Part shown: positions 3,531 through 21,355 of the stretch, in pieces
Layout: every line of letters starts with the position of its first letter
How positions within the stretch are numbered: position 1 is the first letter of the stretch
Made by a program: the position numbers and the translations under genes
The notes under the pieces: generated by a model
Told to the model about the DNA's origin: nothing
What the model saw: the letters and a program-made list of their open reading frames with translations, nothing else
The model's database searches: none
DNA from: Actinomycetota bacterium
GTDB taxonomy: Bacteria > Actinomycetota > Acidimicrobiia > Acidimicrobiales > Ilumatobacteraceae
DNA length: 24,903 nucleotides
Reading direction: 5' to 3'
Assembly (NCBI GenBank): GCA_005787025.1
Contig: SYCH01000248.1
Span: 1-24,903, forward strand

Positions 3531-3586
3531 AGATTGCGCCTCGTAGGTGAGAAGGAAAGCCGGTTCAGGTGAGAACGAGGTGAGAA
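3531..3586 (-). promoter_or_regulatory. OmpR/MprA-type direct-repeat box (3 x TTCTCACCT, 11-nt phase) plus -10 CAATCT
   Basis: AGGTGAGAA occurs exactly at 3545-3553, 3567-3575 and 3578-3586 (spacings 22 and 11). On the minus strand the proximal TTCTCAC is followed by 10 nt and then CAATCT (3536-3531). Confidence 0.75.
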
Positions 3587-3594
3587 TCGCCGAA

Positions 3595-4173
3595 TCACAC
3601 CACCAGCAGGGGCGATGCCCCAGCCGGGGGATCTTTCACGGTCACCTTGGCCCCTACGGCGATCGTTCCGCCGTGGACCACCACCCCCATCACGCCGACA
3701 CGACGCACGACGCTTCCGTCAGGCCGCTCCGAACGAACCTCGGCCAACAGACCCGGACGAAACTCCTCGATCTGTCGACACGGATTGCGCAGACCCGTGA
3801 TACTCACGACAACGCCACCCTCGAACTCCAATCGAGCGCCGGTGAGCAACGAGAACAGGTCGATGCCACTCATGGTGACGTTCTCGCCCAGTTCCCCCGG
3901 CCGAATCGGATGACCCTTGGCACCCAACTCGTCGAGAGTCTCGACGGCGATCAGATGAACCTGTCGCAGATTCGGAGTCGACGCGTCGGCGCGGCCCGCT
4001 TCGATCATGGCCACCCGCGAGCGATGCTTGACCGTTACGCCGGCATGAGCGTCGTCGAGCACTCCGATACCGGCGATCAACTCGATGGCATCCACCTCGA
4101 ACTTGGAAAATGTGTGCGTGGACGAACGATGAACCGCCACCACTCGTGGTCGGACATCTGACGAGGAATTCAT
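3595..4173 (-). CDS. MOSC domain protein (YiiM-like)
   Basis: GIGVLDDAHAG, RQVHLI, PGELGENVT, TGLRNPC (conserved Cys) and G-x-I-x-x-G motifs; GAGG RBS upstream. Confidence 0.9.
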   Translation of the reverse strand: MNSSSDVRPRVVAVHRSSTHTFSKFEVDAIELIAGIGVLDDAHAGVTVKHRSRVAMIEAGRADASTPNLRQVHLIAVETLDELGAKGHPIRPGELGENVTMSGIDLFSLLTGARLEFEGGVVVSITGLRNPCRQIEEFRPGLLAEVRSERPDGSVVRRVGVMGVVVHGGTIAVGAKVTVKDPPAGASPLLVV

Positions 4174-4219: not shown

Positions 4220-5335
4220 ATGACGCGTGCCCTCTCCGACGTCGCCCGTCTGATGCTGAAGCTGGGCGTGATCGGATTCGGAGGTCCGGTCGCGCACATC
4301 GCGATGATGCGCGACGAAGTCGTCCGCCGCCGACAATGGTTCGACGACGAGGAATTTCTGCAGATGGTCGGGGCCACGAATCTGATCCCCGGGCCGAACT
4401 CCACGGAGATGGCCATGTACGTCGGGATGAAGCGGGCCGGGGTTCGTGGCTTGATCACCGGTGGCCTGTCGTTCATTCTTCCGGCCGTCGTCATCGTGGG
4501 CGCGATCGCATGGCTCTACGTCGAGCATGGAACCAACCCCCTCATCTTCGACCTTCGCTACGGCGTTCTTCCCGTGATCGTCGCGGTGATCGCGCACGCG
4601 GTATGGGGCCTCGGCGTGACCAACACGCGCAACCCGGCCGGTCTCGTCACCGCGGCCACGGCGTTCGGCGGATACCTGCTCGGCGTGCATGAATTGATCG
4701 TGATCGCATCGCTCGGCCTCGTGTGGGCCACCGTGCACCTCGTCCGACGAGGATCCAGCCGGCTCAATTCGTTCACGGGCTTCGGTTTCGTTGCGATACT
4801 CGCCACGCAACCCTCCCTCACGCGACTCTTTCTGATCTTCCTCGAAGTGGGATCGGTTCTCTACGGAAGCGGTTACGTGCTCGTCGCGTTTCTCGACAGT
4901 CGGCTCGTGACCGCCCATGCGTATCTCACGGCCGAACAACTTCTCGACGCGATCGCGGTCGGGCAGATCACACCCGGACCGGTGTTCACCACCGCCACCT
5001 TCATCGGATGGCAGATACTCGGTGTGGCCGGTGCCATAGTCGCCACCCTGGGAATCTTCGGTCCGTCGTTCTTCTTCGTCGGATTGCTCGACCGCATCCT
5101 GCGTTGGCTTCGCGCCCGACCAGCCGCTCTCGCGTTTCTGAACGCAGTGACAGTGTCGTCACTCGGCCTCATGGCCGGCGTCCTCGTTCGTCTCGGCGAC
5201 GCGGCGCTCATCGATCCGCTCACCTGGATCGTGGCGATCACGGCGCTCGTCCTCTTGATCACCACCAAGGTCGGTGCCGGATGGCTCGTTCCGGCCGGTG
5301 TGGTCATCGGGATCGTGCACGCTGCGGCATCCTGA
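4220..5335 (+). CDS. chrA: Chromate ion transporter, CHR family (long, two-domain)
   Basis: FGGPVAHIAMM and PGPNSTEMA in the first half, YGSGYVL and QITPGPVFTTATFIG in the second. The ORF opens at 4199; ATG 4220 is the preferred start. Confidence 0.93.
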   Translation: MTRALSDVARLMLKLGVIGFGGPVAHIAMMRDEVVRRRQWFDDEEFLQMVGATNLIPGPNSTEMAMYVGMKRAGVRGLITGGLSFILPAVVIVGAIAWLYVEHGTNPLIFDLRYGVLPVIVAVIAHAVWGLGVTNTRNPAGLVTAATAFGGYLLGVHELIVIASLGLVWATVHLVRRGSSRLNSFTGFGFVAILATQPSLTRLFLIFLEVGSVLYGSGYVLVAFLDSRLVTAHAYLTAEQLLDAIAVGQITPGPVFTTATFIGWQILGVAGAIVATLGIFGPSFFFVGLLDRILRWLRARPAALAFLNAVTVSSLGLMAGVLVRLGDAALIDPLTWIVAITALVLLITTKVGAGWLVPAGVVIGIVHAAAS

Positions 5336-6485
5336 CGAGAGTGATCGCCCCGATCACGACACTCGCGCTGGCGAGTACGAGTCCGCTCCAGGTGCGGCCG
5401 GTGAGGTCGATCACGAGTGCACCGACCAGTGGACCGAAACCCGACATGAAGCCACCCACGAAGTGCATCGACCCCATGAGTGTTCCGAGGTCGTGCGCGG
5501 GGAGAACCTCTCGTGCGTAGATGCCGTCGAGTGGCGACACGGCGCCGATGCCCAAACCACCGACGATCACGAACGAAATCGCCACGCCGATGTTGCCGCT
5601 GAAGGCGAGGAGCAAGGATCCGCCCGCGACGAGCAACTTCGCTCCGACCAGCACCTGTCGCGTCGGATGTCGATCGAGAACTCGACCGAGTGGAAGGCGT
5701 CCCAGCAATTGGGCGAATCCCCGGGCTCCGGCCATCGAAGCGGCGGTCGACCGCTCAAGCCCACCGGCAACCATCGCCGGGATCTGGAGCACCATGATGA
5801 TCGACGTTCCGAACGAGCTGGCGAGTGACGAGAAGGCATAGCGCCGAACGAGAGGCTCCTTCCACGCACCGGCGAGGGCGAGGCGCGACGACGCCGACGG
5901 TGATACCGATCGCGACACTCCTTGACGATCGACGAACAACGCGGCGATGACCAGCACTCCGCCCACCACCACTGCCGAAACACGCACCGTGTCGCGCCAA
6001 CCGACCCACGACCGCATGACTTCGGTGAGGGGAATGAGAATCGGCGACGAGAATGCACCCCAGATCGTGAGTTGGGCGATCGCCCGTGCTTCGCTTCCCG
6101 TCGAGAGTCGTGCCGCGACCGTTTGAGTGAGGTGGTAGAAGCTCGACGCACCCACCACACCTCCTCCGATTCCGAACAGGACGGCGAACGAGACGGGCGA
6201 ATCCGTGAAGGTCGAAGCGATCACGAGTACTGGCCCGACAGCAGCACCGATCGCGAACGGACGGCCGGCTCCATGGCGATCAAGGGTTCGCCCGACCCAC
6301 ATTCCGAGGACTCCCGTGAGGATCTGGGCGATGGTGTAGCCGACGGTGAGGATGCCGACACCGGAGCCGAAGTCGGCCGCCATGTCGTCGAGTAGAACGC
6401 CGAATCCATAGAACCACGAGCCGTACGACACGATCGTCAGGACCCCGAGGATCCCGACACGCACGGTGGGGACGTTGGACGGCAC
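5304..6485 (-). CDS. MFS transporter
   Basis: About 12 hydrophobic segments; motif A-like loops GMWVGRTLDRHG and LGRVLDRHP; overlaps the chrA 3' end by 32 nt. Confidence 0.9.
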   Translation of the reverse strand: MPSNVPTVRVGILGVLTIVSYGSWFYGFGVLLDDMAADFGSGVGILTVGYTIAQILTGVLGMWVGRTLDRHGAGRPFAIGAAVGPVLVIASTFTDSPVSFAVLFGIGGGVVGASSFYHLTQTVAARLSTGSEARAIAQLTIWGAFSSPILIPLTEVMRSWVGWRDTVRVSAVVVGGVLVIAALFVDRQGVSRSVSPSASSRLALAGAWKEPLVRRYAFSSLASSFGTSIIMVLQIPAMVAGGLERSTAASMAGARGFAQLLGRLPLGRVLDRHPTRQVLVGAKLLVAGGSLLLAFSGNIGVAISFVIVGGLGIGAVSPLDGIYAREVLPAHDLGTLMGSMHFVGGFMSGFGPLVGALVIDLTGRTWSGLVLASASVVIGAITLVRMPQRARSR

Positions 6486-6505: not shown

Positions 6506-7291
6506 TTAGTCGACCGGGCGACCTTCGAAGTCGCCGATGAGCGAGAGCACCACCCGCTCACCGCTCTCGGCCGAGGCGAATCGTTGGAGCTTCTCGGCGT
6601 AGTACGACTCTCGCAGATCGCCTTCCGTCAACGCGTTGTAGGTGGGATACAGAGCGCGACGATCACGTGTCGATCGATTTGCTCCGCTGCGATGCGGAGT
6701 GAGCGAATGGAACCACAACGTCTGTCCGGCCTCGATCGGCGCGTGCTGCCAGGTCATGTCGGCAACGAGCGAAGCGGTGATGCATCCACGTTCGTCGGTG
6801 GCCAGCAGCTCCGCGTGCCGACCACTCACGATCTCGAGACATCCGTTCTCGACAGTGGCATCGTCCACGGCCACCATGCACGACACGTGCGAATCGATGA
6901 AAGGATACGCCGGGGCGTCCTGATGAGGAGAGAATCCCGCACCGCCAACCAACTTGTAGTTGATCTTCTCCTTGTAGAGCACCGCGGGCTCACCGAGCAA
7001 TCGCGATGCGGTCACGGCCAATCGTCGCGTGAGCAATTCGCGAAGCCCTTCGTGAACCGGGACGAAATTCTCGCTACGGGCCAACTTCGGGCCGAAGTCG
7101 GTCATCTCACGATGGTGGAGAATCGCCCCGGGCTCGTCGAACGTGGCGGCGATCTCGTCCACCCATCCGCGGAGTCGATGGACTTCTTCGTCGTTCAGAT
7201 CTTCGGTGAGGACCCAACCGTGCGCGACGAAGTGTTCGACGATTGCGGGATCTTCGGGCGAGAACACCGGGAGCGACATATCGACGCTCAC
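6506..7291 (-). CDS. phnY: Fe(II)/2-oxoglutarate dioxygenase (PhyH family), PhnY/PhnY*-like phosphonate hydroxylase
   Basis: LYKEKINYKLVGGAGFSPHQDAPAY (H-x-D), ENGCL, PHRSGANRS-RRA-Y-TYN closely match PhnY; GTGA overlap with the upstream phnZ-like gene. Confidence 0.82.
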   Translation of the reverse strand: MSVDMSLPVFSPEDPAIVEHFVAHGWVLTEDLNDEEVHRLRGWVDEIAATFDEPGAILHHREMTDFGPKLARSENFVPVHEGLRELLTRRLAVTASRLLGEPAVLYKEKINYKLVGGAGFSPHQDAPAYPFIDSHVSCMVAVDDATVENGCLEIVSGRHAELLATDERGCITASLVADMTWQHAPIEAGQTLWFHSLTPHRSGANRSTRDRRALYPTYNALTEGDLRESYYAEKLQRFASAESGERVVLSLIGDFEGRPVD

Positions 7292-7842
7292 CGACCGACG
7301 TGTCGCGCCGCGAGTTCGCGAATCGTGTTCTCGTAGGTCGCCAAAGGAGCGACCACCTTCCCGGCGATCTTGGCACCGTCGTCGGCGATCCGCAGTTCGA
7401 CCATCGCGCGAAGGTCCGGATGTCGTTCGAACTCCGACGTCTCGTCGGGCGTCATGGGGCCACCTTGCGCGGCCAGGGTCATGACGCTGTCGGGTGAAAG
7501 TAATGAGGCATACTCCGCACGGGTGGCCACCAGATAACGCTTTGCCGGTACGTGCGACAGAATCAGGTCGGCCACCCGATCACCCAACACGTCTCGGACG
7601 GCGATCGCACCCATGGTTGCGTGCCGCGGTTGCCCCGGGCCGTCCCACGGATGGGCGAGATCGTGTACCAGGCCCGCAATCTGCAACTCGGAGTCGTCGG
7701 GAGCGACATCGCGAAGAATCGCCGCGGTCTGCAGGCCGTGATCGAGTTCGGTGAAGTTGTCGGCCTCGACCGAACCGAGCGCACCCAGTTGACGCAAATG
7801 GTCGATGATCTCGTCGGCATCACGAAAGCGACGGGGGGTCAT
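7288..7842 (-). CDS. phnZ: HD-domain di-iron oxygenase, PhnZ-like C-P bond-cleaving enzyme
   Basis: LDHGLQTA, LVHDLAH, RHATMG, HVPAKRYL, LSPDSVMTLAAQGGPM and LRIADDGAK retain the PhnZ His/His-Asp/His/His/Asp iron ligands and K/S/T/R phosphonate contacts. The ORF extends to 7977, but ATG 7842 gives a PhnZ-sized protein (184 aa). Confidence 0.85.
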   Translation of the reverse strand: MTPRRFRDADEIIDHLRQLGALGSVEADNFTELDHGLQTAAILRDVAPDDSELQIAGLVHDLAHPWDGPGQPRHATMGAIAVRDVLGDRVADLILSHVPAKRYLVATRAEYASLLSPDSVMTLAAQGGPMTPDETSEFERHPDLRAMVELRIADDGAKIAGKVVAPLATYENTIRELAARHVGR

Positions 7843-7876
7843 CTGAGCCAGAGTCACGCGGTCACGATAACCCGAA

Positions 7877-8015
7877 GAGGTGAACGCCACGTGTCCGATG
7901 CGCAAAGCACGGTCCCCGTGGGACGACCTCCAATGTCGGGTCTTCTGCCGTTTCGCCAACATTGTCCGGTCGTTCACCTCGGTGAGTTGTCACGTCAACT
8001 TCGGTGATTCACCAT
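7877..8015. promoter_or_regulatory. Divergent phnZ/phnF control region with CGTTCACCTC inverted pair
   Basis: GAGGTGAACG (7877-7886) and CGTTCACCTC (7971-7980) are exact reverse complements. Also AGTTG-N6-CAACT (7985-8000), GGTGATTCACC (8003-8013) and a possible -10 CACCAT (8010-8015) 6 nt before GTG 8022. Confidence 0.5.
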
Positions 8016-8021
8016 CGGTCC

Positions 8022-8744
8022 GTGCTCGAGACGTACGTTGCGGTGGCGAACGAACTGGAAGAACGGGTCCGAGGACTTTCCGTCGGGGACCGCGTGCCTT
8101 CCGAAAACGAGGTAGTTCAGGAGTTTGCGGTGAGTCGGCCCACGGCGCGGGCCGCGTTGCAGGAGTTGGAACGTCGCTTCTTGGTACGACGGAAGAAGGG
8201 CTCGGGGACGTTCGTGAACGAACGAATCCCCTACCCGGTCGGCGGTAGACACCCCGCCAGCATCAGTCAAGCTCTCGCCCTGTCGGGTCACCGGGCCGAC
8301 TTACGAATCGTCACCGTCACCGATGTCGAACCGACTCAGTCCGAGGCTCGATCGTTCGGTGATGACGCTCCTTCGCGTCTCTGGTCGATCGGTCGGACCA
8401 TCTCCGTCGACGGCGATGTCGTGGGTTTCAACGTCAGCAAGTTGTCCGCATCGCTAACGCCCGACGTGCGTCGGCACTTGACGGGTACTCCGTCGATCTG
8501 GCGGATTCTCGACGTCCATTACGGAATTCGCCTCGTTCGTCGGAGCATCGACGTCTCGATCGACACTCCCCCCGAGCATGTCGCGCGGATACTCGACTCC
8601 CGCGAACCGGCCTGGCATCTGCGGAGCGTCAACGTGAACGAGCCTCACGGAGGCGTCGTCGAACTCGGGGAGTCCTGGATCCGTACGGATCGGGTGGCCG
8701 TGACGGTTCGATTCGATCACTCGACCGAAGCGAGGAGTGCATGA
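8022..8744 (+). CDS. phnF: GntR/HutC-family regulator (wHTH plus UTRA), PhnF-like
   Basis: GDRVPSENEVVQEFAVSRPTARAAL-EL...GSGTFV wHTH and a C-terminal UTRA domain; heads the C-P lyase operon. ORF opens at 8004; 8022 is preferred on leaderless geometry. Confidence 0.88.
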   Translation: MLETYVAVANELEERVRGLSVGDRVPSENEVVQEFAVSRPTARAALQELERRFLVRRKKGSGTFVNERIPYPVGGRHPASISQALALSGHRADLRIVTVTDVEPTQSEARSFGDDAPSRLWSIGRTISVDGDVVGFNVSKLSASLTPDVRRHLTGTPSIWRILDVHYGIRLVRRSIDVSIDTPPEHVARILDSREPAWHLRSVNVNEPHGGVVELGESWIRTDRVAVTVRFDHSTEARSA

Positions 8745-9178
8745 CCATGGACCGCAACCGAAGAAGCGAACTACTCGCTCGCGCCAATTCGTCCGAATTG
8801 ACGGCGATGGCCGAGGCATTCCTCTCGAGACGTTCGATCGCCGAGGAAATACAGGTCGTCAATCCGCCCGAGGTGGGGATGGTGATGATGCAGGTACGCG
8901 AACCCGTGTGCAAGGAGCGATTCCATCTCGGAGAAGTCGTGGTCACCCGCGCCGAAGTGGCGGTGGCCGGCGTTCGAGGATGGGCCATGAGGTCCGGCAC
9001 GGATAGAGAGACGACGTTGGCGGCCGCCCTTCTCGATGCGTGCGCCGAGCACGATGTCGAACTGGCCGCCGAGGTGCAAGCTCTCTGTGAGCGAACCGCC
9101 GACCGGATCGCAGCCGACGAGCGGCGCGAATGGGAAGAACTCAGAGCCACGGCCGTGTCGTTCGAGGAGCTCGACTGA
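8741..9178 (+). CDS. phnG: C-P lyase subunit PhnG
   Basis: PEVGMVMMQVR...FHLGEVVVTRAEV...G-G...AALLDA; ATGA overlap with phnF. Confidence 0.93.
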   Translation: MTMDRNRRSELLARANSSELTAMAEAFLSRRSIAEEIQVVNPPEVGMVMMQVREPVCKERFHLGEVVVTRAEVAVAGVRGWAMRSGTDRETTLAAALLDACAEHDVELAAEVQALCERTADRIAADERREWEELRATAVSFEELD

Positions 9179-9179
9179 A

Positions 9180-9848
9180 ATGAACCTTGCCATCGACCCG
9201 GAGGCCCGCCGGATGCCCGCCAAGGTCGCAGCCTGCAGGTTCGATGCCCTCGAATCGCAAGCGATCTTCAAAGTCATGCTCGATACCACTTCGCGGCCGG
9301 GTCTGATCCTCGACCTCCCCCGCCGGATCGTCGATCGAATTCCGAGCGCTCTCGCCCCCCTCGTCGTACTCGCCGATGTGGAAACGCGCGTACACGTGAT
9401 CGACACCCCGACCTTTGCCTGGTCCGAAGCCGTCACCAGTGCCACTGGCGCCCGTCCAGCACAACTGAACAAGGCCGATCTGATCGCTGTTCCTGCCGAT
9501 GGCCGTGAACATCTCACGTCGATCTTCACATTCGCCCATCCAGGGTCAGCCTTCTCTCCGGAATCAGGAGCTCGTCTGATGATCGGGGTGAACGACATTC
9601 GCTCTCACGGAACGAGTGATTCGGCAGGGGTGGAACTCGTCATCCGCGGTCCCGGTGTCGAGGGCGAACGTGGGCTCTGCATTGACGGTCTCACCGAGGC
9701 CGATGTGAATGCATGGCGCACCACGAACTCTCGCTTTCCCGCCGGCATCGATGTCTGGTTGACGACCGAAGCCGGTCGCATCGTCGCCATCCCTCGTTCG
9801 TCGCGACTCGACGTCGTCGCGACGTGGCCCACTCAGGAAAGGAAATAA
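9180..9848 (+). CDS. phnH: C-P lyase subunit PhnH
   Basis: SQAIFKVMLDTTSRPG, LADVET, GSAFSPESGARL, IRGPGV and FPAGIDV...IVAIPRS motifs; ATG 9180 directly follows the phnG stop. Confidence 0.92.
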   Translation: MNLAIDPEARRMPAKVAACRFDALESQAIFKVMLDTTSRPGLILDLPRRIVDRIPSALAPLVVLADVETRVHVIDTPTFAWSEAVTSATGARPAQLNKADLIAVPADGREHLTSIFTFAHPGSAFSPESGARLMIGVNDIRSHGTSDSAGVELVIRGPGVEGERGLCIDGLTEADVNAWRTTNSRFPAGIDVWLTTEAGRIVAIPRSSRLDVVATWPTQERK

Positions 9849-10958
9849 ATGGGATACGCAGCAGCTCGAGGCGGATTGAAGGCCATCGAGGCCGCCGAAC
9901 GTCTGGTCGCCCGCGAGAGGGTCCTTGGCGAAAGCCAGTGGCTCGAGTCGAAGCAGATGATCGAGAAACTCCGCCTCGCCGTTGACCGGGTGATGGGAGA
10001 GGGCGGACTGTGGGACGAACATCTGGCCGCCTCAGCCCTCCGACAGGCCGAGGGAGACCCGATCGAAGCGGCCCACCTTCTGCGTTCGTATCGATCGACA
10101 CTTCCACGTCTCGCTTACACAACTCCCGTCGACGTGGACGACCTGACCGTCCTGCGTCGCATCGTTCCGGCGTTTCGTAATCCACCCGGACCCCAGTTGC
10201 TCGGCCGCACGACCGATTACACCGGCCGCCTGCTCGATACCGATGACGAGACCTCTCAGCGCACAGCAGCCGAGAAGATGGCGGCCTTCATCGAGGAAAA
10301 TGTCACGATCTCGAAGGCGATCGACGGTGACGCTGAACCGACTGACATCCGCCAGCCGCGTCGGTTGCTCGACTTGCTGCGCGACCTCGACGCCGTTGTC
10401 GATCGCCGTCGCACGGACGATCCCGAGCCGTTCGACATCACACGTCATCCGGCCCGTCCCCCGGCGACGCGTTCGGCGCGTCTGGCCACCATGGCTCGTG
10501 CCGAGACCGGTGCACTCGTCAATGTCTGGTATCGAAACATCCTCGGGCCCGACGGTTATCTGCACGAGATCACACTCGGTGAGGTTCGACACGGACGCCT
10601 TCCCGTGACCGTGATTCATCCACTCACCGGTGATCCCGTGTCGATCTCCGACGTCCGGGTCACCGAAGTCGAGGCCATCGAAGATCTGAACGGCATCGAC
10701 GAGGATCGTGGTCGATTCGATGTCGGATACGGGCTGTGTTTCGGGCACAACGAGAAGAAGGCGATCGCGATGGCCAATCTCGACATCGCCTGTGAGCGCG
10801 ACAAGGGTCGTAGTTTTCTCGAGCAATCGATCCTGCTCACCACTGATGGACTCGATGCGAGTGGCTTCCTCGAGCACCTGAAGCTTCCTCATTACGTGAC
10901 TTTCCGTTCGATGATGGAGCGCAAGGCGGCCATTCGTCAGTTCCAGGAAAACACATGA
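9849..10958 (+). CDS. phnI: C-P lyase subunit PhnI (ribosyltriphosphonate-forming nucleosidase)
   Basis: MGYAAARGG, VDRVMGEGGLW, QAEGDPIEAAHLLRSYRSTLPR, RRIVPAF, FGHNEKKAIAMA and GFLEHLKLPHYVTF (Zn-binding His residues). Confidence 0.96.
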   Translation: MGYAAARGGLKAIEAAERLVARERVLGESQWLESKQMIEKLRLAVDRVMGEGGLWDEHLAASALRQAEGDPIEAAHLLRSYRSTLPRLAYTTPVDVDDLTVLRRIVPAFRNPPGPQLLGRTTDYTGRLLDTDDETSQRTAAEKMAAFIEENVTISKAIDGDAEPTDIRQPRRLLDLLRDLDAVVDRRRTDDPEPFDITRHPARPPATRSARLATMARAETGALVNVWYRNILGPDGYLHEITLGEVRHGRLPVTVIHPLTGDPVSISDVRVTEVEAIEDLNGIDEDRGRFDVGYGLCFGHNEKKAIAMANLDIACERDKGRSFLEQSILLTTDGLDASGFLEHLKLPHYVTFRSMMERKAAIRQFQENT

Positions 10959-11884
10959 ATACCCCCCTTCTCCAACAAGTGTTGGACCGCACGACTCCGG
11001 TCGACGATTCACCGGCCTCCCATCTCGAGGTGAATTTCGGTCTTCTCGACGAGTACTCCAAGCGCGAGATCCGACGTGCGATTCTGACCGCCGTCGCCGT
11101 CCCCGGCTATCAGGTTCCGTTCGGTTCACGAGAGATGCCCGTCGCGCGCGGCTGGGGTTCGGGTGGCCTGCAGATCTCTCTCGCCATCGTCGGACCATAC
11201 GACGTCGTGAAAGTGATCGATCAGGGCGACGACGAGGGTGTCAACGCCGTCAACCTACGACGCCTCATCGTGTCGTCGACCGGAATACCCGAGTCGACCA
11301 CTCCCGAGGACAGCACTCTCATTCAGACGCGTCATCGAATTCCGGAGGATCCACTCGACGAACGGCACACCTTGGTTCTGCAAGTCCCCGTGCCCGAACC
11401 TCTCCGTGGGGTCGAACGAGACATGCGCGAATTGGCACGCATGCACGCCGAAGCCGATTACGCGCGAATGTGGGTCAGCTTGTACGAGGACAAGGTTCGC
11501 AACGGTGTCATCACGCGCACCACGGGCTATCCCTGCCTCGTCAACGGGCGCTACGTGATCGCCACCACACCGATTCCCCGGTGGGACGTCCCGCGTCTGC
11601 ACCGTTCCCGATTCCTGGCGCTCTTCGGCGCTGGCCGTGAAAAGCGCATTTATGCCGTGCCGCCTCACACCGATGTGGAGCCACTCACGTTCGAAGACGT
11701 TCCATTCGAGGTGGAGGTCACGCCCGGTGCGTCGTGTCGAACGTGTTCCAGCACGGAGTCATTTCTGGTCGAGATACCCGGGGCGACGGCGGGCGACGGC
11801 GGACACTGGGTGTGTAGCGACAGCGATTGGTGCCGTCGCAATCGTGAGCGACTGCAGCATCCGTCGAGAGGAGATCGGTCGTGA
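10955..11884 (+). CDS. phnJ: Radical-SAM C-P lyase catalytic subunit PhnJ
   Basis: LDEYSKREIRRAIL-AVAVPGYQVPFGSREMP (Gly32 equivalent), GWGSGG, IQTRHRIPE, PIPRWD, LFGAGREKRIYAVPPHT and C-x2-C-x22-C-x5-C (three cluster Cys plus the thiyl Cys). Confidence 0.97.
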   Translation: MNTPLLQQVLDRTTPVDDSPASHLEVNFGLLDEYSKREIRRAILTAVAVPGYQVPFGSREMPVARGWGSGGLQISLAIVGPYDVVKVIDQGDDEGVNAVNLRRLIVSSTGIPESTTPEDSTLIQTRHRIPEDPLDERHTLVLQVPVPEPLRGVERDMRELARMHAEADYARMWVSLYEDKVRNGVITRTTGYPCLVNGRYVIATTPIPRWDVPRLHRSRFLALFGAGREKRIYAVPPHTDVEPLTFEDVPFEVEVTPGASCRTCSSTESFLVEIPGATAGDGGHWVCSDSDWCRRNRERLQHPSRGDRS

Positions 11885-12723
11885 CGACGGACTGGGCGTT
11901 GAGGGTGTCGTCCCTCGGAAAGATCCACGGCTCGGCCGACCTACGAGCGCTCGAGGACACCGGCCCCGACATTGGGACGGCCAAGAGTGCCATCACCGGT
12001 TCGATCGTCGCCGCCTGGGACGTGGGGTTCGAGGTGTCTCCTGGTGAAGCGCTCGGGGTGATCGGTGAATCTGGTTCGGGGAAGTCGACGGTGATGCGCT
12101 GCATCGCCGGAGACCAACCATCGACGAGCGGCGAAGTGCACCTCCGGACCGTGGACGATGGACGAACCAATGTGCTCGAGCTCGATCCCTCGGCTCGTCG
12201 ACGACTGAGAATCTCCGACTTGGCGGTGGTGTACCAGGATCCCGCGGAAGGTCTTCGATTGAACGTCACGGCCGGAGGGAACATCGCCGAGGCACTCACC
12301 GCAGCCGGATGGAGGCACTTCGGTCGAATTCGTGACCGTGCCGCGGAACTGTTGGAACGCACAGAGGTACCCCACTCGCGCATGGACGATCTGGTCGGCA
12401 CCTTTTCCGGTGGAATGCGCCAGCGAGTGCAACTCGCCAAGGCCTTGGCCAACGAACCACCGGTCCTCCTCCTCGACGAACCGACGACCGGACTGGACGC
12501 CTCCGTGGCGGCCGGCGTCCTCGATCTGATCCGAAACCTCCTCGAGGAAACCGGTGTGGCCGCCGTCGTCGTGTCGCACGACTTCGCGGTGATCGAAATG
12601 CTGACCACCCGTTGCGTGGTGATGAACCATGGTCGAATCGTCGAAGCGGGTCTCACCGATCGACTACTCGAGGACCCGCACCATCCGTACAGCCAGCGCT
12701 TGGTCGGGGCGGCCCGCGCATGA
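11881..12723 (+). CDS. phnK: C-P lyase ABC-ATPase subunit PhnK
   Basis: GESGSGKST, YQDPAEGLRLNVTAGGNIAE, FSGGMRQR, LLLDEPTTGLDASV, VSHD and HPYSQRLV. Confidence 0.95.
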   Translation: MTTDWALRVSSLGKIHGSADLRALEDTGPDIGTAKSAITGSIVAAWDVGFEVSPGEALGVIGESGSGKSTVMRCIAGDQPSTSGEVHLRTVDDGRTNVLELDPSARRRLRISDLAVVYQDPAEGLRLNVTAGGNIAEALTAAGWRHFGRIRDRAAELLERTEVPHSRMDDLVGTFSGGMRQRVQLAKALANEPPVLLLDEPTTGLDASVAAGVLDLIRNLLEETGVAAVVVSHDFAVIEMLTTRCVVMNHGRIVEAGLTDRLLEDPHHPYSQRLVGAARA

Positions 12724-13481
12724 CTTTCGCTGACAACATCCTTTCTGTTCGTGGTCTGTCGAAGGACTTCGTTCTGCACACCATCGATGGTCGGCGCGTC
12801 GAAGCCCTTCGTGGAGTCGATCTGGACATACTTCCCGGTGAACACGTTGCTCTCGCCGGGTCGAGTGGAGCTGGTAAGTCGTCGTTGCTGAAGTGCATCT
12901 ACCGCACGTACGAACCCTCGGCAGGCTCGGTGGTGCTTCGGCTCCGCTCCGGTTCGCGCATCGATCTGACGTTGTTGTCCGATCAGGAGATGTCCTACTT
13001 ACGCGGCCGCGACATCGGCTACGTCTCGCAGTTTCTGCGGGCCGAACCCCGCCGTGGACCGCTCGACATAGTCGCACGAGCCGGAGTGTCTCGTGGGATG
13101 GATCGCAACACGGCACGCGATGCAGCCGCGGTGTCACTGAAGCGACTCAACATCGACGAGAAACTCTGGGACGTTCACGCCTCGGTGCTGTCGGGAGGCG
13201 AAAAACAACGTATCAACCTCGCGGCCGGCACGATCTCGTCACCCCAACTCTTACTTCTGGACGAACCGGTGTCGGCTCTCGATCCGGCGAATCGCGAAGC
13301 GGCCCTCGATCTCATCGGCGATCTCGCCACTCAAGGAGTTGCCGTGCTGGCCGTGTTCCACGACGTGGAGGCCATGGAGCGTCTCGCGAGTCGAATCGTT
13401 CTCATGCGGGACGGTCGCGTGGAGTCCAGCGGCGAACCGTCCTCGATGTTGGAAATTCTCACCCAAGGAGCCCGTCGATGA
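12720..13481 (+). CDS. phnL: C-P lyase ABC-ATPase subunit PhnL
   Basis: LSKDFVLH, GSSGAGKSSLLKCIYRTY, YVSQFLR, LSGGEKQRINLA, LLLDEPVSALD and VFHD; start ATG 12720 from the ATGA overlap with phnK. Confidence 0.95.
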   Translation: MTFADNILSVRGLSKDFVLHTIDGRRVEALRGVDLDILPGEHVALAGSSGAGKSSLLKCIYRTYEPSAGSVVLRLRSGSRIDLTLLSDQEMSYLRGRDIGYVSQFLRAEPRRGPLDIVARAGVSRGMDRNTARDAAAVSLKRLNIDEKLWDVHASVLSGGEKQRINLAAGTISSPQLLLLDEPVSALDPANREAALDLIGDLATQGVAVLAVFHDVEAMERLASRIVLMRDGRVESSGEPSSMLEILTQGARR

Positions 13482-14680
13482 ATCGACTCGTGATCACCAA
13501 TGCGACCGCGGTACTGCCCGATCGCGTCCTGTCCGATGCCACCATCGTCTGCGAAGAAGGGGTCATCGTCGACGTGAACGATTCACGTCATGCGCACACC
13601 GTCGAAACCCGATCGATCGATGCTCGGGGTGCGCTGTGCATACCCGGATTGGTGGACACCCACAGCGACGGTTTGGAACGCGAGCGTTTCCCCCGTCCGG
13701 GCGTCGATCTCGGTTCACGTTTTCCCGTGCGTTCATTCGAAGGCCGGGTGAGGGCGGCCGGCATCACCACGATGTTCCACGGCATCGGATTCGAGGAGGA
13801 CGCCAAGAACCTTCGCAGCGTCGTGCTGGCCAACGAATGGTCCGACGAATTGGAGACCTATCGGGAATCCGGTCGCGCCCTCGTCGACCATCGCATCCTG
13901 TACCGACTCGACGCCCGCGATCCGGACGGCTTTCCCTGCCTGGTGGATCGATTGGCACGGCGAGCCGACGACGGATCTCTGCCCCTCGTTTCGTTCGAGG
14001 ATCACACGCCGGGTCAGGGTCAGTACGCCGACCGCACCGCCTTCGAGCGATACATCGTCGGAACCCAAGGCCTGTCCGAAGACGAGGCACGCCAGCGGGT
14101 CGATCAGATCATCGCCGAACGAGATTCGACGTTGGCCCACCGTGACTTGGCCCTCGCGTGGTTGGTCGAGCGAGCCGCCCATGGTGAGATCCGACTCATG
14201 GCCCATGATCCTGCCACCGTTGCCGATGCCGATTCGGCGCGTGAATGGAATGCCACCATCGCCGAGTTCCCCACCACTCTCGAAGCCGCCGAACGTGCCA
14301 AGGAACTCGGGCTCCGCACGGTCTGTGGAGCTCCGAACGTGATGCGCGGGCGGAGTCATTCCGGAAACGTGAGCGCTCGGGAGTTGATTTCCCGGGGACT
14401 CTGTGACGGCTTGGCCAGTGACTACCTGCCCTCCACGATGTTGGGTGCCGTGGCCGTGCTCGTGCACGAAGGAGTCTGCACCCTTCCCGACGCCGTGGCC
14501 CTCGTCTCCTCGGGACCCGCCGTCACGGTCGGCCTGTTCGATCGTGGTTCGATCAGCGTGGGTCGACTGGCCGACCTCGTGATCGCCGAATTGGACGGCC
14601 CGCTCGCGGTGGTTCGACACGTCGTGCGTGGCGAGGAAATGAGACTCGACGTCGGTGACGCCTTGGCGGTCCTCGCGTGA
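13478..14680 (+). CDS. phnM: Alpha-D-ribose 1-methylphosphonate 5-triphosphate diphosphatase PhnM
   Basis: From ATG 13478 (MNRLVITNA): PGLVDTHSDGLE, EDHTPGQGQ, AHD, EFPTT, GAPNVMRGRSHSGNVSA and LASDY. The ORF-track start at 12893 is an in-frame extension overlapping phnL. Confidence 0.95.
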   Translation: MNRLVITNATAVLPDRVLSDATIVCEEGVIVDVNDSRHAHTVETRSIDARGALCIPGLVDTHSDGLERERFPRPGVDLGSRFPVRSFEGRVRAAGITTMFHGIGFEEDAKNLRSVVLANEWSDELETYRESGRALVDHRILYRLDARDPDGFPCLVDRLARRADDGSLPLVSFEDHTPGQGQYADRTAFERYIVGTQGLSEDEARQRVDQIIAERDSTLAHRDLALAWLVERAAHGEIRLMAHDPATVADADSAREWNATIAEFPTTLEAAERAKELGLRTVCGAPNVMRGRSHSGNVSARELISRGLCDGLASDYLPSTMLGAVAVLVHEGVCTLPDAVALVSSGPAVTVGLFDRGSISVGRLADLVIAELDGPLAVVRHVVRGEEMRLDVGDALAVLA

Positions 14681-15492
14681 GCGTCCCCTCACCACGATTC
14701 GTCGAAGTCCATCCCGCGTTGTCGACTGCGGCGGCCGCGGCCCATGACGCTTACATCACCGCCAAACGCAACCGGACTCGCACCGAATTGGCCTCCATCA
14801 TCGGTGTCGGAGGCGACGGAACGCCGACCATGTTCCTGGATCAATTGGTGGACGAGGCGGTCGTCGCCGCGGTCGAACCGTTCGGAGTCAACATCCTCTC
14901 CGAGGAGATCGGCTGGGTCGACAACGGATCAGCGATCACCCTCGTCATGGACCCCGTCGACGGCACGGCGAACGCCGTCGCCGGAATTCCGTCTTGTGCC
15001 TTCGCCGGAACCATCGTGATCGACGGGATCATCACCGACTCCCAGATCATCTGGCTCGACTCGAATCGTTCCTTCCTCGCCCATCGCGACGACACCGGTG
15101 GTTTCGACATCTCCGAGCCTCTCCTCACCACCGGTCGGCGTTCATTGGAAGGGGCTTCCATCGCGATGTTGCGTCCCCGACCGGAGACTCGCTCCGCATG
15201 GAACCGCGTCGTCGAGCCGACCGAACGTCTACGTGTCATGGGTAGTTCGGTGATCGAAGGTTCGCTGGTCGCCATGGGGTCCATCGACGCGTTCGTCGAC
15301 GCCGGGGGCGACGTCCACCGACTGGTCGATCTGCTTCCCCTGGTGCCATTCGTGGAACATGCCGGTGGAGTCATCATCGACGCCTTCGGTCGGCCGTTGG
15401 GTTTCGACACCGACTTGTCGAAGCGCTGGAGCGGCATCGTGGCCGCCACGCCCGAGTTGGCCGACCAGATTCGTTCCATCATCGATCGTTGA
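14677..15492 (+). CDS. Inositol monophosphatase / FBPase (FIG) family phosphatase
   Basis: ILSEEIG, MDPVDGTANA, LRVMGS-I-GSLVA-G-IDAFVD and RLVDL...EHAGG; all three metal-binding acidic motifs present; GTGA overlap with phnM. Confidence 0.9.
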   Translation: MSVPSPRFVEVHPALSTAAAAAHDAYITAKRNRTRTELASIIGVGGDGTPTMFLDQLVDEAVVAAVEPFGVNILSEEIGWVDNGSAITLVMDPVDGTANAVAGIPSCAFAGTIVIDGIITDSQIIWLDSNRSFLAHRDDTGGFDISEPLLTTGRRSLEGASIAMLRPRPETRSAWNRVVEPTERLRVMGSSVIEGSLVAMGSIDAFVDAGGDVHRLVDLLPLVPFVEHAGGVIIDAFGRPLGFDTDLSKRWSGIVAATPELADQIRSIIDR

Positions 15493-15513
15493 TGGAACGT
15501 CTCCACTGATCAA

Positions 15514-17268
15514 TCAAAGAATGCGCTTGCGCACCCAACCCGAGAGCAGTTCGATCGAATAGACCACCACGAAGATGGTGATGAGAACCGCTCCGACGGT
15601 GCGCAACTGCAGAACCCTCAGAGCATTGAAGAGGATGAAGCCGATTCCTCCACCACCGACGATTCCGAGGATCGTGGAGGTTCGCAAATTGATATCCAAG
15701 GCGTACAGCAGGTTGCTCACGATCGCAGGCATCGCTTGGGGTATCACCGAAGTGGCGATCTCCTGGGTCTTGGTGGCACCAGTGGCGAAGGTCGCCTCAC
15801 GAGGTATCGGATTGATCTCCTCAACGGCGTCGGCGATCAACTTGGCGAGGAATCCCGAGGTTCCGAAAGCCAAGGCCAGGGTTCCGGGCACCGGACCGAG
15901 TCCGATCGCGGCGATGAAGATGACGGCGATGATCAGTTCGGGGATTCCCCGAACCAGCACGAGGAACAATCTCGAGACGCTGTACACGATGCGATTGAAG
16001 GCCACGTTGCGCGCGGCCATCAATCCGAGCGGGATGGACAGGATGGCCCCCATGAACGTGGCCACCAATGCCGCGGCCACCGATTCGATGATCCCATCGA
16101 CGATCGGATCTCGCGCGGTGGAGAAGTCGGGCGGGAAGAGTCGCGTGGTCACCTTCCATACGTCGGGCAACGCCCCGAGTAGCTCCCCCGGGTTCAGCGA
16201 GACGGAGCGAAACGCGATCACGACGAGGGCGACGAACGCCAAGCCGTAAATGGTCTTCATACGCACTTCGCCCACCCACGGCGGACGGATCTTCTCGCGG
16301 TCGAACGGTCGCACGCCTATGTCGTTCTTCATGCGATCCGACCAGAAGCGCGAGAAGATCCGCGCTCCGAGACTGAACTTCGGAACCGACCGACCCACCA
16401 GTGTTCGATCTCCTCCGAGAAGCGTGGCGCGCACGGCGGCCGAGAAGAACTCCATGATGGTGATCAGGACGAAGATCACGGAAACCACACCGAGTGCCTC
16501 GTCGTATTGCAATGACCGAAGGTTGGCTTGCATGAGGAACCCGATACCACCGGCGCCCACGATGCCCAGAACCGACGACGACCGCAGGTTGATGTCCAGT
16601 CGATAGAGAATCGTCGAGATGAAGGAGGGCATCGCCTGTGGGATCACCGAAGTGGTGATCGCCTGCCACTTCGACGCTCCGACCGAGGTCACCGCTTCGC
16701 GCGGCATTTTCTCAGTTTGCTCGATGGCGTCGGCGAACAACTTCCCGACCATGCCGATGGAGTGCAGGCCGAGAGCGATGACCCCGGGCAAAACTCCGAT
16801 CCCGATGGCTCGGACGAAGATGGCCGCGAAAATGAGATCCGGCACTGCACGGCTGAGCACGATGACGCCCCGACACACGGCCATGACCGCGGGATGCGGT
16901 GTGGTGTTGCGCGCCGCCCCCAACGCGATGGGAAAGGACAACACCACCGCGATCGTCGTACCGATGACCGCCATCCACAACGTCTCAAATCCCAGTCGGA
17001 TCGCATCGTCGAGATCGGAGAATTTCGGGGGCAGCATTCGTCCGAGCAGGTTCCGAACGTCACCGATGCCGGCGATCAGTCCACCGAAGCTCATCTCGAT
17101 GTGACGCCATGCCCACACGACCGCCACGATGAAGACCGCCAGAACGACTCGCATCACGATGCGGTCGCCGGTCAGGCGTCGTCGAAGTCGCGAATCGCTC
17201 GAGGGCGGGAACTCGGGGGCCATCGGATCCGAATCCGAGTCGGGAATCGTGGGGACGGGAGAAGTCAT
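15514..17268 (-). CDS. phnE: Phosphonate ABC permease, two PhnE domains fused in one 584-aa ORF
   Basis: Two complete PhnE units (SRAVPDLIFA...GKLFADAIE...LDINLRSSSVLGIVGAGGIG and VRGIPELIIA...AKLIADAVE...LDINLRTSTILGIVGGGGIG) joined by an uninterrupted linker. Confidence 0.93.
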   Translation of the reverse strand: MTSPVPTIPDSDSDPMAPEFPPSSDSRLRRRLTGDRIVMRVVLAVFIVAVVWAWRHIEMSFGGLIAGIGDVRNLLGRMLPPKFSDLDDAIRLGFETLWMAVIGTTIAVVLSFPIALGAARNTTPHPAVMAVCRGVIVLSRAVPDLIFAAIFVRAIGIGVLPGVIALGLHSIGMVGKLFADAIEQTEKMPREAVTSVGASKWQAITTSVIPQAMPSFISTILYRLDINLRSSSVLGIVGAGGIGFLMQANLRSLQYDEALGVVSVIFVLITIMEFFSAAVRATLLGGDRTLVGRSVPKFSLGARIFSRFWSDRMKNDIGVRPFDREKIRPPWVGEVRMKTIYGLAFVALVVIAFRSVSLNPGELLGALPDVWKVTTRLFPPDFSTARDPIVDGIIESVAAALVATFMGAILSIPLGLMAARNVAFNRIVYSVSRLFLVLVRGIPELIIAVIFIAAIGLGPVPGTLALAFGTSGFLAKLIADAVEEINPIPREATFATGATKTQEIATSVIPQAMPAIVSNLLYALDINLRTSTILGIVGGGGIGFILFNALRVLQLRTVGAVLITIFVVVYSIELLSGWVRKRIL

Positions 17269-18092
17269 GCGACGCGGGGGCTCGACGGCACCGAGGGCTT
17301 TTCGACGGAGGCATCAGTCGAACGGCCCGGCTCCACCCGACGATAGACCTCCATCACTGCGGACTCGTCGAGATTGTCGACTTCTCGATCCAACACCACC
17401 TGCCCGTCGCGCAATCCGACGATGCGTTGCGCCCAACCGAGCGCCAGTTCAACCTGGTGCAGTGTGCAGATCACGGTGAGTTGATCCTCGACGACGATCC
17501 GAAACAGAACGTCCATCACCTGCGCCGACGACTCCGGGTCCAATGACGCGACTGGTTCGTCGGCCAACAGAAGCTTCGGGCGCTGCATCAATGTGCGGGC
17601 GATGGCCACTCGCTGTTGCTGGCCGCCCGAAAGGGTGTCGGATCGCTGGAACGCACGATCACCAAGACCGACTCGGTCGAGGTTCTCGAGCGCTTCACGA
17701 CGCAGCGCCTTGGGATACATCAACGTCCCGAAGCGCGGTCCACTGAGTCGACCGAGCGCGCCGGACAGGACGTTTTCCAATGCGGTGAGACGCCCCACCA
17801 ATCCGAATGACTGGAACACGAAACCAACGTCGCGGCGGAGCTCGCGAAGTTCACGGCGACCCGCCGCCACGACGTTGGTCCCCAACACTTCGACGAAACC
17901 CGACGAGGGAGGGATCAGGCCGTGGAGATGTCGGAGAAGAGTGGACTTACCGCTTCCCGACAAGCCGATCAGTGACAGCAGCTGACCCTTGGGAACCGCC
18001 AGATCGACCTGGTCGAGAGCCAGGGGACCGTTGGGGAACTTCTTGGACAGTCCGGTCACCCGAACGGCGTTGTCGGGAAGCGGGGAGGTCAT
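17265..18092 (-). CDS. phnC: Phosphonate ABC transporter ATPase
   Basis: GLSGSGKSTLLR, LTALENVLSGALGR, LSGGQQQRVAIAR, LLADEPVASLDPESS and LHQVELA. Confidence 0.96.
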   Translation of the reverse strand: MTSPLPDNAVRVTGLSKKFPNGPLALDQVDLAVPKGQLLSLIGLSGSGKSTLLRHLHGLIPPSSGFVEVLGTNVVAAGRRELRELRRDVGFVFQSFGLVGRLTALENVLSGALGRLSGPRFGTLMYPKALRREALENLDRVGLGDRAFQRSDTLSGGQQQRVAIARTLMQRPKLLLADEPVASLDPESSAQVMDVLFRIVVEDQLTVICTLHQVELALGWAQRIVGLRDGQVVLDREVDNLDESAVMEVYRRVEPGRSTDASVEKPSVPSSPRVA

Positions 18093-18099
18093 GGTCGAA

Positions 18100-19104
18100 T
18101 CAGCCCTCGCACTTGGCCGACTTGGTGGCCTCGCACACCGCGCGGACCCCGTCGTAGAACGAGTCGGCGACAGGGACCCAGCCCCAAGCGTTCTCGTCGG
18201 TCAAACCGCAGTCGTCCGCGCTCGTGCAGCGACCATCGGCGAGCAACGCGTCACGATTGGCGACTTCCAGAACCAGGCGGATGATCTCGGCCTTCAACGA
18301 CTCGGGGAGACCGTTCTGCATCGCCAGCGGCGAGCCGGCGATGACTTCGGACTTCCACACCGTGGTGATGTCACCTTCGGCGATGTCACCGGCCTCGATG
18401 AGGACCGAGTCGACCATGGCGTCGAACGCGAAGCCGGCGTCGCAGTCACCGTTGTTGACGGAAATGACGGAGGCATCATGTCCACCGGCGAAAACCGGCG
18501 TCACGTCGGCTTCCGGATCGATGCCGAGTTCCAACAGGCCAGCCGAGGGATACAAGTATCCCGAGGTCGAGCCCGGGTCGACGAAGCAGATCTTCTTACC
18601 GCGGAAACCCTCGAGATCGGTGATGTCGCTGCCGGTCTTCACGATTCCGTAGCTCTGGTAACCGGGCTCCTCGTCGGGTGCGTCGACGAGAGCGCCGATC
18701 GGATCGATGTCGGCGCCGTTGAACTTGGCGATCACGTACGAGAACGGACCATATTGCGCCAAGTCCACCTTGCCCGAGATCTGGGCCTCGATGATTCCGG
18801 CGTAGTCGGTCGCCTGGAAGAATTCGACTTCGAGTTCCAGCTCCTCTTCGAGGACCTGAATCAATTTGCTGTAGCTCTCGACGAGAGCGGTGCTTTCCTC
18901 GGAGGGAACGGCACCCAAAACGATCTTGTCGGGCCAATCCGCCTTCGGATCGGCTTGTGTGGTGGTCGGGGCCTCCGAACTGGCGGGCGCCTCGCTGGAC
19001 GGCGACGACTCGCTGTCGTCGCTACCGCAAGCGACCAACATCGACAGTGACGCCACGGCGATTGCCAAAACCGGCAACTTCCTCGTGTGATTTCCGAAAA
19101 GCAT
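18100..19104 (-). CDS. phnD: Phosphonate/phosphite ABC substrate-binding lipoprotein
   Basis: Lipobox LVAC, TDYAGIIEA, GPFSYV, DPGSTSGYLYP and AGGHDAS; strong AGGAGG RBS. Confidence 0.95.
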   Translation of the reverse strand: MLFGNHTRKLPVLAIAVASLSMLVACGSDDSESSPSSEAPASSEAPTTTQADPKADWPDKIVLGAVPSEESTALVESYSKLIQVLEEELELEVEFFQATDYAGIIEAQISGKVDLAQYGPFSYVIAKFNGADIDPIGALVDAPDEEPGYQSYGIVKTGSDITDLEGFRGKKICFVDPGSTSGYLYPSAGLLELGIDPEADVTPVFAGGHDASVISVNNGDCDAGFAFDAMVDSVLIEAGDIAEGDITTVWKSEVIAGSPLAMQNGLPESLKAEIIRLVLEVANRDALLADGRCTSADDCGLTDENAWGWVPVADSFYDGVRAVCEATKSAKCEG

Positions 19105-19137: not shown

Positions 19138-19248
19138 GTTCACGATGGTGAACGTAGGAGTCGAAACTGAATGTGAATAGCGCCCGAGATAAACCCCGAC
19201 TGAATAGTCGGTGTAACTCGGACGAACGAGCACACTTGTCAATACAGG
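19138..19248 (-). promoter_or_regulatory. phnD upstream region: GTTCAC-N4-GTGAAC palindrome and other dyads
   Basis: GTTCAC-GATG-GTGAAC at 19138-19153, CCGAC-N6-GTCGG at 19196-19211, and CTTGTCAATACAGG at about 19235-19248 (minus strand contains TTGACA). The region is more AT-rich than the coding DNA. Confidence 0.45.
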
Positions 19249-21321: not shown

Positions 21322-21355
21322 AGTCTGCCCGCCACGGGTAAGAGTCGGGTGAGAA
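21322..21355 (-). promoter_or_regulatory. Autoregulatory direct-repeat box and leaderless promoter of the response regulator
   Basis: Minus strand reads TTCTCAC-CCGA-CTCTTAC (11-nt phase), 10 nt, CAGACT, 6 nt, ATG 21315. Confidence 0.7.

Follow-up and report, generated by a model that had tools for sequence, protein, structure and literature searches.

By which enzyme does a C–P lyase pathway end when the phn operon holds neither phnN nor phnP? The question is raised by a 24.9-kb stretch of DNA (the window), which is an entire contig (C229) of a metagenome-assembled genome (MAG) whose closest named relatives are lake Ilumatobacteraceae (Acidimicrobiia). PhnJ, the radical-SAM subunit that cleaves the C–P bond, leaves 5-phosphoribosyl-1,2-cyclic phosphate (PRcP). 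In Escherichia coli, PRcP is turned into ribose-1,5-bisphosphate by PhnP, and PhnN then gives 5-phosphoribosyl 1-diphosphate (PRPP) (PMC10574752). The last gene of the operon in the window (14677-15492, + strand) encodes a divergent phosphatase of the inositol monophosphatase (IMPase) family, here termed P0001, as a candidate terminal phosphate-releasing enzyme. We consider it probable that P0001 acts after PhnJ and releases phosphate in a pathway that lacks PhnN and PhnP, with a substrate and products that we infer.

The GTG start codon of the P0001 gene overlaps the TGA stop codon of phnM (13478-14680, +) by 4 nucleotides (nt), as GTGA, within ...GCGTGAGC..., as read directly from the sequence. 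A first-pass annotation of this DNA had described an intact phnF-G-H-I-J-K-L-M series and an IMPase-family gene overlapping the phnM stop in this manner, with no phnN, phnO or phnP in the window. In agreement with this description, Pfam and NCBIfam matches were obtained for each of the phn genes, and PhnN and PhnP profiles as well as a PhnO-like GNAT query returned nothing in the window.

With the PF00459 (Inositol_P) model, P0001 scored 44.8 bits, above the cut-off of 27 (42.8 bits in a genome-wide search). Its best NCBIfam match was NF009321, the archaeal bifunctional fructose-1,6-bisphosphatase (FBPase)/IMPase, at 125 bits and below the equivalog cut-off of 264, and scores for SuhB (NF008027, 21.5 bits versus a cut-off of 332) and HisN (TIGR02067, 56.3 versus 275) were likewise too low. 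Judged by these profiles, P0001 would be placed outside every curated functional subfamily, with NF009321 as the nearest family at a score below its curated rule. The protein contains the motifs LSEEIG, DPVDGT and HRLVDL (HRLVDLLP). The metal motifs SEE, DPVDGT and VD, called intact at first pass, could be aligned onto the metal ligands of MJ0109: residues E76, D92, V94 (carbonyl oxygen), D95 and D218 of P0001 correspond to E65, D81, I83, D84 and D201, respectively, and all five positions are invariant across 21 homologs. The COOH-terminal motif HRLVD has the archaeal R-x-x-D form, not the WDxAAG form of SuhB, and the archaeal likeness that had been read from this motif (RLVDL) was borne out by the best matches in sequence, profile and fold. 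The best sequence matches among solved structures were all archaeal, namely 1xi6 (Pyrococcus furiosus), 1dk4 (MJ0109), 1vdw (PH1897) and 1lbv (AF2372), with E values of 1e-15 to 1e-18.

An AlphaFold (AF2) model obtained from 21 homologs had a predicted local distance difference test (pLDDT) score of 94.5 and a predicted TM score (pTM) of 0.91. Foldseek matched the model with a probability of 1.00 and TM scores of 0.75-0.86 to SuhB, AF2372 and MJ0109, the best matches being AF2372 and MJ0109 (0.83-0.86), and the alpha-beta-alpha-beta-alpha sandwich of the IMPase fold was apparent from both the model and these comparisons. P0001 is thus a bona fide IMPase-fold hydrolase of archaeal type that is probably active. 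Within its clade 50 positions are invariant, including those of the catalytic-loop sequence GGDGTPT and the arginines R166, R184, R186, R215, R239 and R250; the invariant arginines would fit a doubly phosphorylated substrate.

A database search identified 310 homologs of P0001. Inspection of the neighborhoods of four of these placed those 55-77% identical to P0001 in phn clusters and that of Spinactinospora (L005, 52%) outside. A scan with one genome per species then gave 41 loci encoding a homolog of 45% identity or higher, approximately 19 of which lie inside a phn cluster as determined by tblastn with the Phn proteins of the window. (These include L037 from an unpublished genome, G436, on which no conclusion rests.) The 4-nt overlap between the stop codon of phnM and the start codon of the IMPase gene, as ATGA or GTGA, is present at 17 distinct loci, the window and 16 others, in five actinobacterial orders; its carriers are Ilumatobacteraceae and other Acidimicrobiia, Streptosporangiales (Spongiactinospora, Nonomuraea), Pseudonocardiales (Tamaricihabitans, Amycolatopsis, Pseudonocardia), Propionibacteriales (Microlunatus) and Mycobacterium. 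At further loci the IMPase gene follows phnE or a gene for an HD-domain protein of the PhnZ/TmpB type (Phn-HD) and is still within the phn cluster; at L009, for example, an HD gene (9435-10001) stands between phnM and the IMPase gene. The gene calls of Tamaricihabitans halophyticus DSM 45765 read phnD-C-E-F-G-H-I-(J-K fused)-L-M-IMPase, followed by unrelated genes. Given that, of the 401 Actinomycetota genomes sampled, no more than 12 encode PhnJ, the conserved adjacency of phnM and the IMPase gene is far beyond chance, and the linkage that the first-pass annotation had asked for in other genomes was therefore found.

We also searched for the known PRcP-processing enzymes, whose presence elsewhere in the genome would have undermined that annotation. 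Nothing above cut-off was detected for PhnN or PhnP in the rest of the source genome, although, with this MAG (1.46 Mb, 273 contigs) being 53.6% complete, absence outside the window is weak evidence alone. Neither PhnN nor PhnP was found in any of the 18 genomes with a linked copy (E <= 1e-15), many of which are isolate genomes. DUF1045 (2H/RcsF) was likewise absent from all 18 at E <= 1e-5, a weaker result in that control genomes were also silent, and the PhnPP model (NF041661) gave either no match or unlinked matches that reached 93-122 bits, the cut-off being 500. With two additional genomes (G324 and G801) and the source genome included, PhnN, PhnP and a convincing PhnPP were not found in 21 genomes. 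In 18 carriers, P0001 is thus encoded in a phn operon of a genome in which no other PRcP-processing enzyme was detected, the DUF1045 search having had no positive control. Because P0001 is linked to the phn operon in species without the known enzymes of the last step, its clade is the best candidate for an undescribed phosphate release that closes the C–P lyase pathway in the source organism and about 20 other actinobacterial species.

In the scheme that we propose, P0001 would be produced together with PhnM through translational coupling and would act after PhnJ as a dedicated archaeal-type, Mg-dependent phosphohydrolase of the IMPase fold. It would cleave the phosphate that stems from the phosphonate off PRcP, or off ring-opened ribose-1,5- or ribose-2,5-bisphosphate, to yield ribose-5-phosphate and free phosphate, with both PhnP and PhnN being dispensable. 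AF2372 and MJ0109 hydrolyze a phosphate adjacent to a hydroxyl group on sugar bisphosphates. Substrates of archaeal-type IMPases also include glucose-1-phosphate, 2'-AMP and NADP, which we take as a lead only. The scheme has two versions: P0001 might be a monoesterase that receives a ribose bisphosphate after an unlinked enzyme has opened the ring, or a dihydrolase that would perform both hydrolyses at its multi-metal site.

Several observations weigh against this scheme. Twenty-two species possess a homolog that is 45-50% identical to P0001 and lies outside phn clusters, and 20 of these 22 genomes do not contain PhnJ. The unlinked homologs belong mostly to Pseudonocardiaceae of a Saccharothrix/Lentzea/Actinokineospora clade, with 16 of 23 unlinked entries (the 22 species and the Spinactinospora locus L005) forming one Pseudonocardiaceae subclade. 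In the Saccharothrix/Lentzea/Actinokineospora subclade, where PhnJ is absent, the gene immediately upstream of the IMPase homolog, on the same strand, encodes an Ldh/Mdh-family dehydrogenase (8912-9925 in L018, with equivalents in L023, L029, L031, L032, L035, L039-L041, L044 and L049). The P0001 family can therefore work without C–P lyase, and either its substrate is available without that enzyme or its function has shifted in these organisms. In addition, two Ilumatobacteraceae genomes that are 99-100% complete (G605 and G645) encode a PhnJ 76-77% identical to that of the window, and in neither was the P0001 clade, PhnPP, PhnP or PhnN found genome-wide. P0001 is thus not present wherever this C–P lyase lineage is present. 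Another route for PRcP processing must exist in these two organisms, and it might also exist in the source genome. The operon of G645 (L104, contig G645:C9, approximately 7800-15500) reads phnGHIJKLM-PhyH-HD, with the genes for a PhyH-family dioxygenase and an HD protein directly after phnM. The 10955-15492 stretch of the window was detected in metagenomes from no fewer than 13 freshwater, lagoon or aquatic studies, and among the RNA runs searched for this stretch no run containing it was found. The alternative phosphate-release route suggested at first pass accordingly stands in part: the absence of PhnN and PhnP, the conserved linkage and the archaeal type speak for it, whereas the homologs in PhnJ-less genomes and the operons of G605 and G645 speak against it.

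The version in which P0001 is only a monoesterase, acting on ribose-1,5- or ribose-2,5-bisphosphate after an unlinked phosphodiesterase, is a part of the proposed scheme that we regard as possible, albeit tentatively. All characterized enzymes of the IMPase superfamily are monoesterases, and to our knowledge no member of the superfamily opens a cyclic phosphodiester. The PRcP-processing activity implied for G605 and G645 in the absence of P0001 is consistent with a separate ring-opening enzyme, and the homologs of PhnJ-less genomes would fit a ribose bisphosphate substrate, which may also arise from PRPP or pentose metabolism. No such ring-opening partner was identified in the carrier genomes or clusters, however, with PhnP, DUF1045 and a convincing PhnPP all being undetected there. 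Clustering of open reading frames (ORFs) over the linked loci yielded Phn-HD as the sole recurrent accessory gene besides that for the IMPase, at 9 of 23 loci, but this gene is missing from four carrier genomes (Spongiactinospora, Tamaricihabitans and two of Microlunatus) and its product belongs to the PhnZ/TmpB oxygenase family. The Phn-HD ORF of the window (7288-7977, −) was itself considered as the missing cyclic phosphodiesterase, a role that is not supported in view of this family assignment (TIGR03276; PDB entries 6npa and 4mlm), its PhnY-like partner and its absence from the four carriers, but that an HD protein might still have in genomes such as G645.

That P0001 alone hydrolyzes both P–O bonds of PRcP, as an independently arisen analog of PhnPP, we regard as possible, about as tentatively as the monoesterase version. 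PhnPP (PHP family, NF041661) resembles P0001 in being encoded at the end of actinobacterial phn clusters that lack PhnN and PhnP, and its net outcome, ribose-5-phosphate and phosphate, is that proposed for P0001. The action of PhnPP on both bonds has reportedly been demonstrated by experiment, at a trinuclear site of the PHP type. The PHP and IMPase folds are unrelated, but both families are multi-metal and have phosphomonoesterase members, including nucleoside bisphosphate phosphatases; the closest relatives of PhnPP are monoesterases as well, with NF041577, a model for the 3',5'-nucleoside bisphosphate phosphatase, being the second-best model for PhnPP-type proteins. If P0001 is indeed a dihydrolase, its activity would be the first of a cyclic phosphodiesterase or dihydrolase in the FBPase/IMPase superfamily, and in operons of the Tamaricihabitans type P0001 would constitute the complete downstream half of the C–P lyase pathway.

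An explanation outside the proposed scheme is that P0001 is a generic phosphate-starvation phosphatase, a broad scavenger of the IMPase/FBPase type that resides in a Pho-controlled operon without a specific role in C–P lyase function. Archaeal-type IMPases do have broad specificity, homologs occur without C–P lyase, and the two C–P lyase operons of the same lineage in G605 and G645 lack P0001. We nevertheless judge this explanation improbable, given that the 4-nt coupling is specifically to phnM at the 17 loci of five orders and that the distribution of P0001 within Acidimicrobiia is confined to PhnJ-positive genomes. Among 401 Acidimicrobiia genomes, 5 encode PhnJ, and the P0001 clade (E <= 1e-30) was detected in 3 of these 5 and in none of the 396 PhnJ-negative genomes; these counts are descriptive, with no statistical test applied, because the genomes are mutually related. 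In G801 the IMPase start overlaps phnM by ATGA, whereas G324 contains two IMPase copies, each after a phnE gene, and its phnGHIJKLM contig ends inside phnM. P0001 is also encoded in addition to the complete complement of ordinary paralogs of the IMPase family: the source genome encodes at least three other IMPase proteins that score 85-197 bits on PF00459, compared with 42.8 for the phn-linked protein. The only genome of the same genus in the sample (G573, 97% complete) has four ordinary IMPase-family genes only, lacking both PhnJ and the P0001 clade, and the phn region therefore behaves as an accessory island. The co-occurrence with PhnJ, together with the presence of ordinary paralogs besides, indicates that P0001 is an additional and divergent paralog moving together with the phn island rather than a housekeeping IMPase. 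In a tree, 45 homologs formed one clade with a support of 98 in the Shimodaira-Hasegawa-like approximate likelihood ratio test (SH-aLRT), apart from the other sampled actinobacterial IMPase-family sequences (approximately 30% identity).

A generic role is also at odds with the position of P0001 in a slot that is held by PhnPP in other Actinomycetota. Ten other PhnJ-positive Actinomycetota have no P0001 homolog at E <= 1e-5, with the exception of 28-30% matches in G232 and G384. Five of these ten encode in the phn cluster a PHP-family protein for which the PhnPP model gives 220-545 bits, and two have Phn-HD within the cluster. In another (G227, L092 13327-14268), a xylose isomerase–like TIM barrel protein of the AP_endonuc_2 family is encoded directly after phnM; it shows faint similarity to the cobamide-remodeling phosphodiesterase CbiR and might be another candidate replacement for PhnP. 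Given that different hydrolases fill the slot after phnM or phnL depending on lineage, the pattern is that expected for non-orthologous replacement at one pathway step. A 283-amino-acid ORF after phnM in G384 (L096) was considered as a distant IMPase and rejected, as it showed no similarity; its partial match in the window is a MOSC-domain ORF (3595-4173, −) unrelated to phn.

A noncatalytic or upstream role, with P0001 serving as a structural or regulatory partner of PhnM or the C–P lyase core, as an RNA or transcription factor like SuhB, or in the removal of phosphate from an earlier intermediate such as 5-phosphoribosyl 1-phosphonate (PRPn), is very improbable, in that the matched expression expected from translational coupling with phnM and the moonlighting of bacterial SuhB as a Nus factor (according to PDB titles) are set against the invariance of the catalytic metal ligands across the family, the 21.5 bits obtained with the SuhB equivalog model, the likely waste of pathway substrate by PRPn dephosphorylation and the position of the gene after phnE, not phnM, in G324.

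With regard to its relatives among known enzymes, P0001 shares with the archaeal class IV FBPase/IMPases (MJ0109, AF2372, PH1897 and PF2014) the fold, the metal ligands, the R-x-x-D last motif and an R-x-R sequence before the last beta-alpha unit. It is only approximately 24% identical to these proteins, however, and its context is a C–P lyase operon rather than gluconeogenesis or inositol synthesis. The catalytic mobile loop of MJ0109 reads SPSGDET, compared with the clade-invariant GGDGTPT of P0001. ImpA (Cg2298/Rv1604 type), an actinobacterial IMPase paralog that is orphan with respect to substrate, shares with P0001 the annotation "IMPase or archaeal FBPase." An R-x-R sequence is typical of ImpA orthologs (PMC5516325) and P0001 has an invariant R184-x-R186, a comparison with ImpA made by description only; the P0001 clade is, on the other hand, the separate and additional one delineated above. 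PhnP together with PhnN, as well as the 2H phosphodiesterase RcsF/DUF1045, process PRcP and are encoded distally in phn operons (PMC10574752). With PhnP and PhnN the phosphorus is retained within PRPP; a phosphatase such as P0001 would instead set it free as phosphate.

A 2023 review names only PhnP/PhnN and the 2H/RcsF alternative for this step, and it describes a survey of 54 operons in which 11 had neither PhnP nor RcsF (PMC10574752). In the literature that we searched, no IMPase-family gene was linked to C–P lyase. The pathway and the fold are thus both known, but the recruitment of the IMPase fold to the last step, and possibly the chemistry, appear to be undescribed. Many C–P lyase operons encode neither PhnP/PhnN nor PhnPP nor the 2H/RcsF enzyme, whose part in the last steps is a proposed one. 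The P0001 clade provides a concrete candidate for such operons in Actinomycetota, and its carriers include the cultured soil genera Nonomuraea, Amycolatopsis, Microlunatus and Tamaricihabitans as well as widespread freshwater Ilumatobacteraceae. If the proposed role is correct, a function would be assigned to an orphan IMPase subfamily, lake and soil metagenomes could be better annotated for the use of phosphonates and the release of methane from methylphosphonate, and it would become clear whether phosphorus exits in the form of free phosphate and not of PRPP.

The genes of the operon, all on the + strand, were assigned as follows. The first encodes a phnF-like regulator with GntR and UTRA domains in Pfam (8004-8744), the best NCBIfam match of which was PhnF (TIGR02325) at 64 bits, under the cut-off. 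It is followed by phnG (8741-9178; PF06754, 93 bits; TIGR03293, 94.4 bits, above cut-off), phnH (9175-9848; PF05845, 95 bits; TIGR03292, 100.8 bits, above cut-off), phnI (9849-10958; PF05861, 328 bits) and phnJ (10955-11884; PF06007, 390.8 bits). The products of phnK (11881-12723) and phnL (12720-13481) are ABC_tran proteins with TIGR02323 (220 bits) and TIGR02324 (226 bits), respectively, as best NCBIfam matches. The starts of phnH and phnL are approximate: the phnH ORF is open from 9036, with 222 amino acids in the L007 homolog, and the phnL ORF from 12612. The product of phnM, the ribose phosphonate triphosphate (RPnTP) diphosphatase with an amidohydrolase fold, matched NF011990 with 320 bits (cut-off of 233) and TIGR02318 with 330 bits, the profile match beginning at about residue 196-200 of an ORF that opens at 12893. 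In Tamaricihabitans halophyticus and Amycolatopsis sp. GM8, a single protein of 600-612 amino acids combines PhnJ with PhnK (L107 6209-8047 and L108 6275-8077; gene calls and Pfam).

Convergent with the P0001 gene, and separated by 21 nt from the stop codon of the latter, is phnE (15514-17268, −), which encodes a duplicated, fused permease of 584 amino acids (TIGR01097, 511 bits in two stretches). A tandem-duplicated phnE fusion is also present in most of the related loci. A gene for a phnC-like ABC ATPase (17265-18092, −; ABC_tran) is placed between phnE and phnD (18100-19104, −), the latter encoding the phosphonate-binding protein (PF12974, 185.5 bits).

Divergent from phnF are two genes that overlap by 4 nt. 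One encodes a PhyH-family dioxygenase of the PhnY*/TmpA-like type (6506-7291, −; PF05721, 94 bits), whose best NCBIfam match was the methylphosphonate hydroxylase PhnY (NF052437) at 244 bits with a cut-off of 500. The other encodes the Phn-HD oxygenase (7288-7845, −), which matched TIGR03276 with 113 bits and the PDB structures of TmpB (6npa, E value of 8e-17) and PhnZ (4mlm, 3e-16); although its ORF extends to 7977, the gene probably starts near 7845, and the gene call of the L007 homolog has 186 amino acids. A gene for an MFS transporter (5304-6485) adjoins the pair. The two oxygenases would provide a second, oxidative route of phosphonate use beside the methane-forming C–P lyase, with the PhyH dioxygenase predicted to belong to this neighboring route and to lie outside the C–P lyase steps.

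The divergent promoter between phnF and the HD gene (7972-8013) contains GTTCACC-N2-GGTGAG and the palindrome GGTGATTCACC; given that this palindrome overlaps the putative GTG of phnF, the exact start of phnF is uncertain. Another palindrome, GTTCAC-N4-GTGAAC, lies upstream of phnD (19138-19153). Such GTTCACC-type elements may be putative operators for PhoP or PhnF, but, because the counts of GTTCACC and TTCTCAC (PHO boxes) in the window were not above the shuffled expectation, we make no regulatory claim. Three copies of TTCTCAC are present at 3547-3586 (−), and a further copy (21349-21355) lies upstream of a response-regulator gene. The MOSC-domain ORF at 3595-4173 adjoins a chromate transporter gene.

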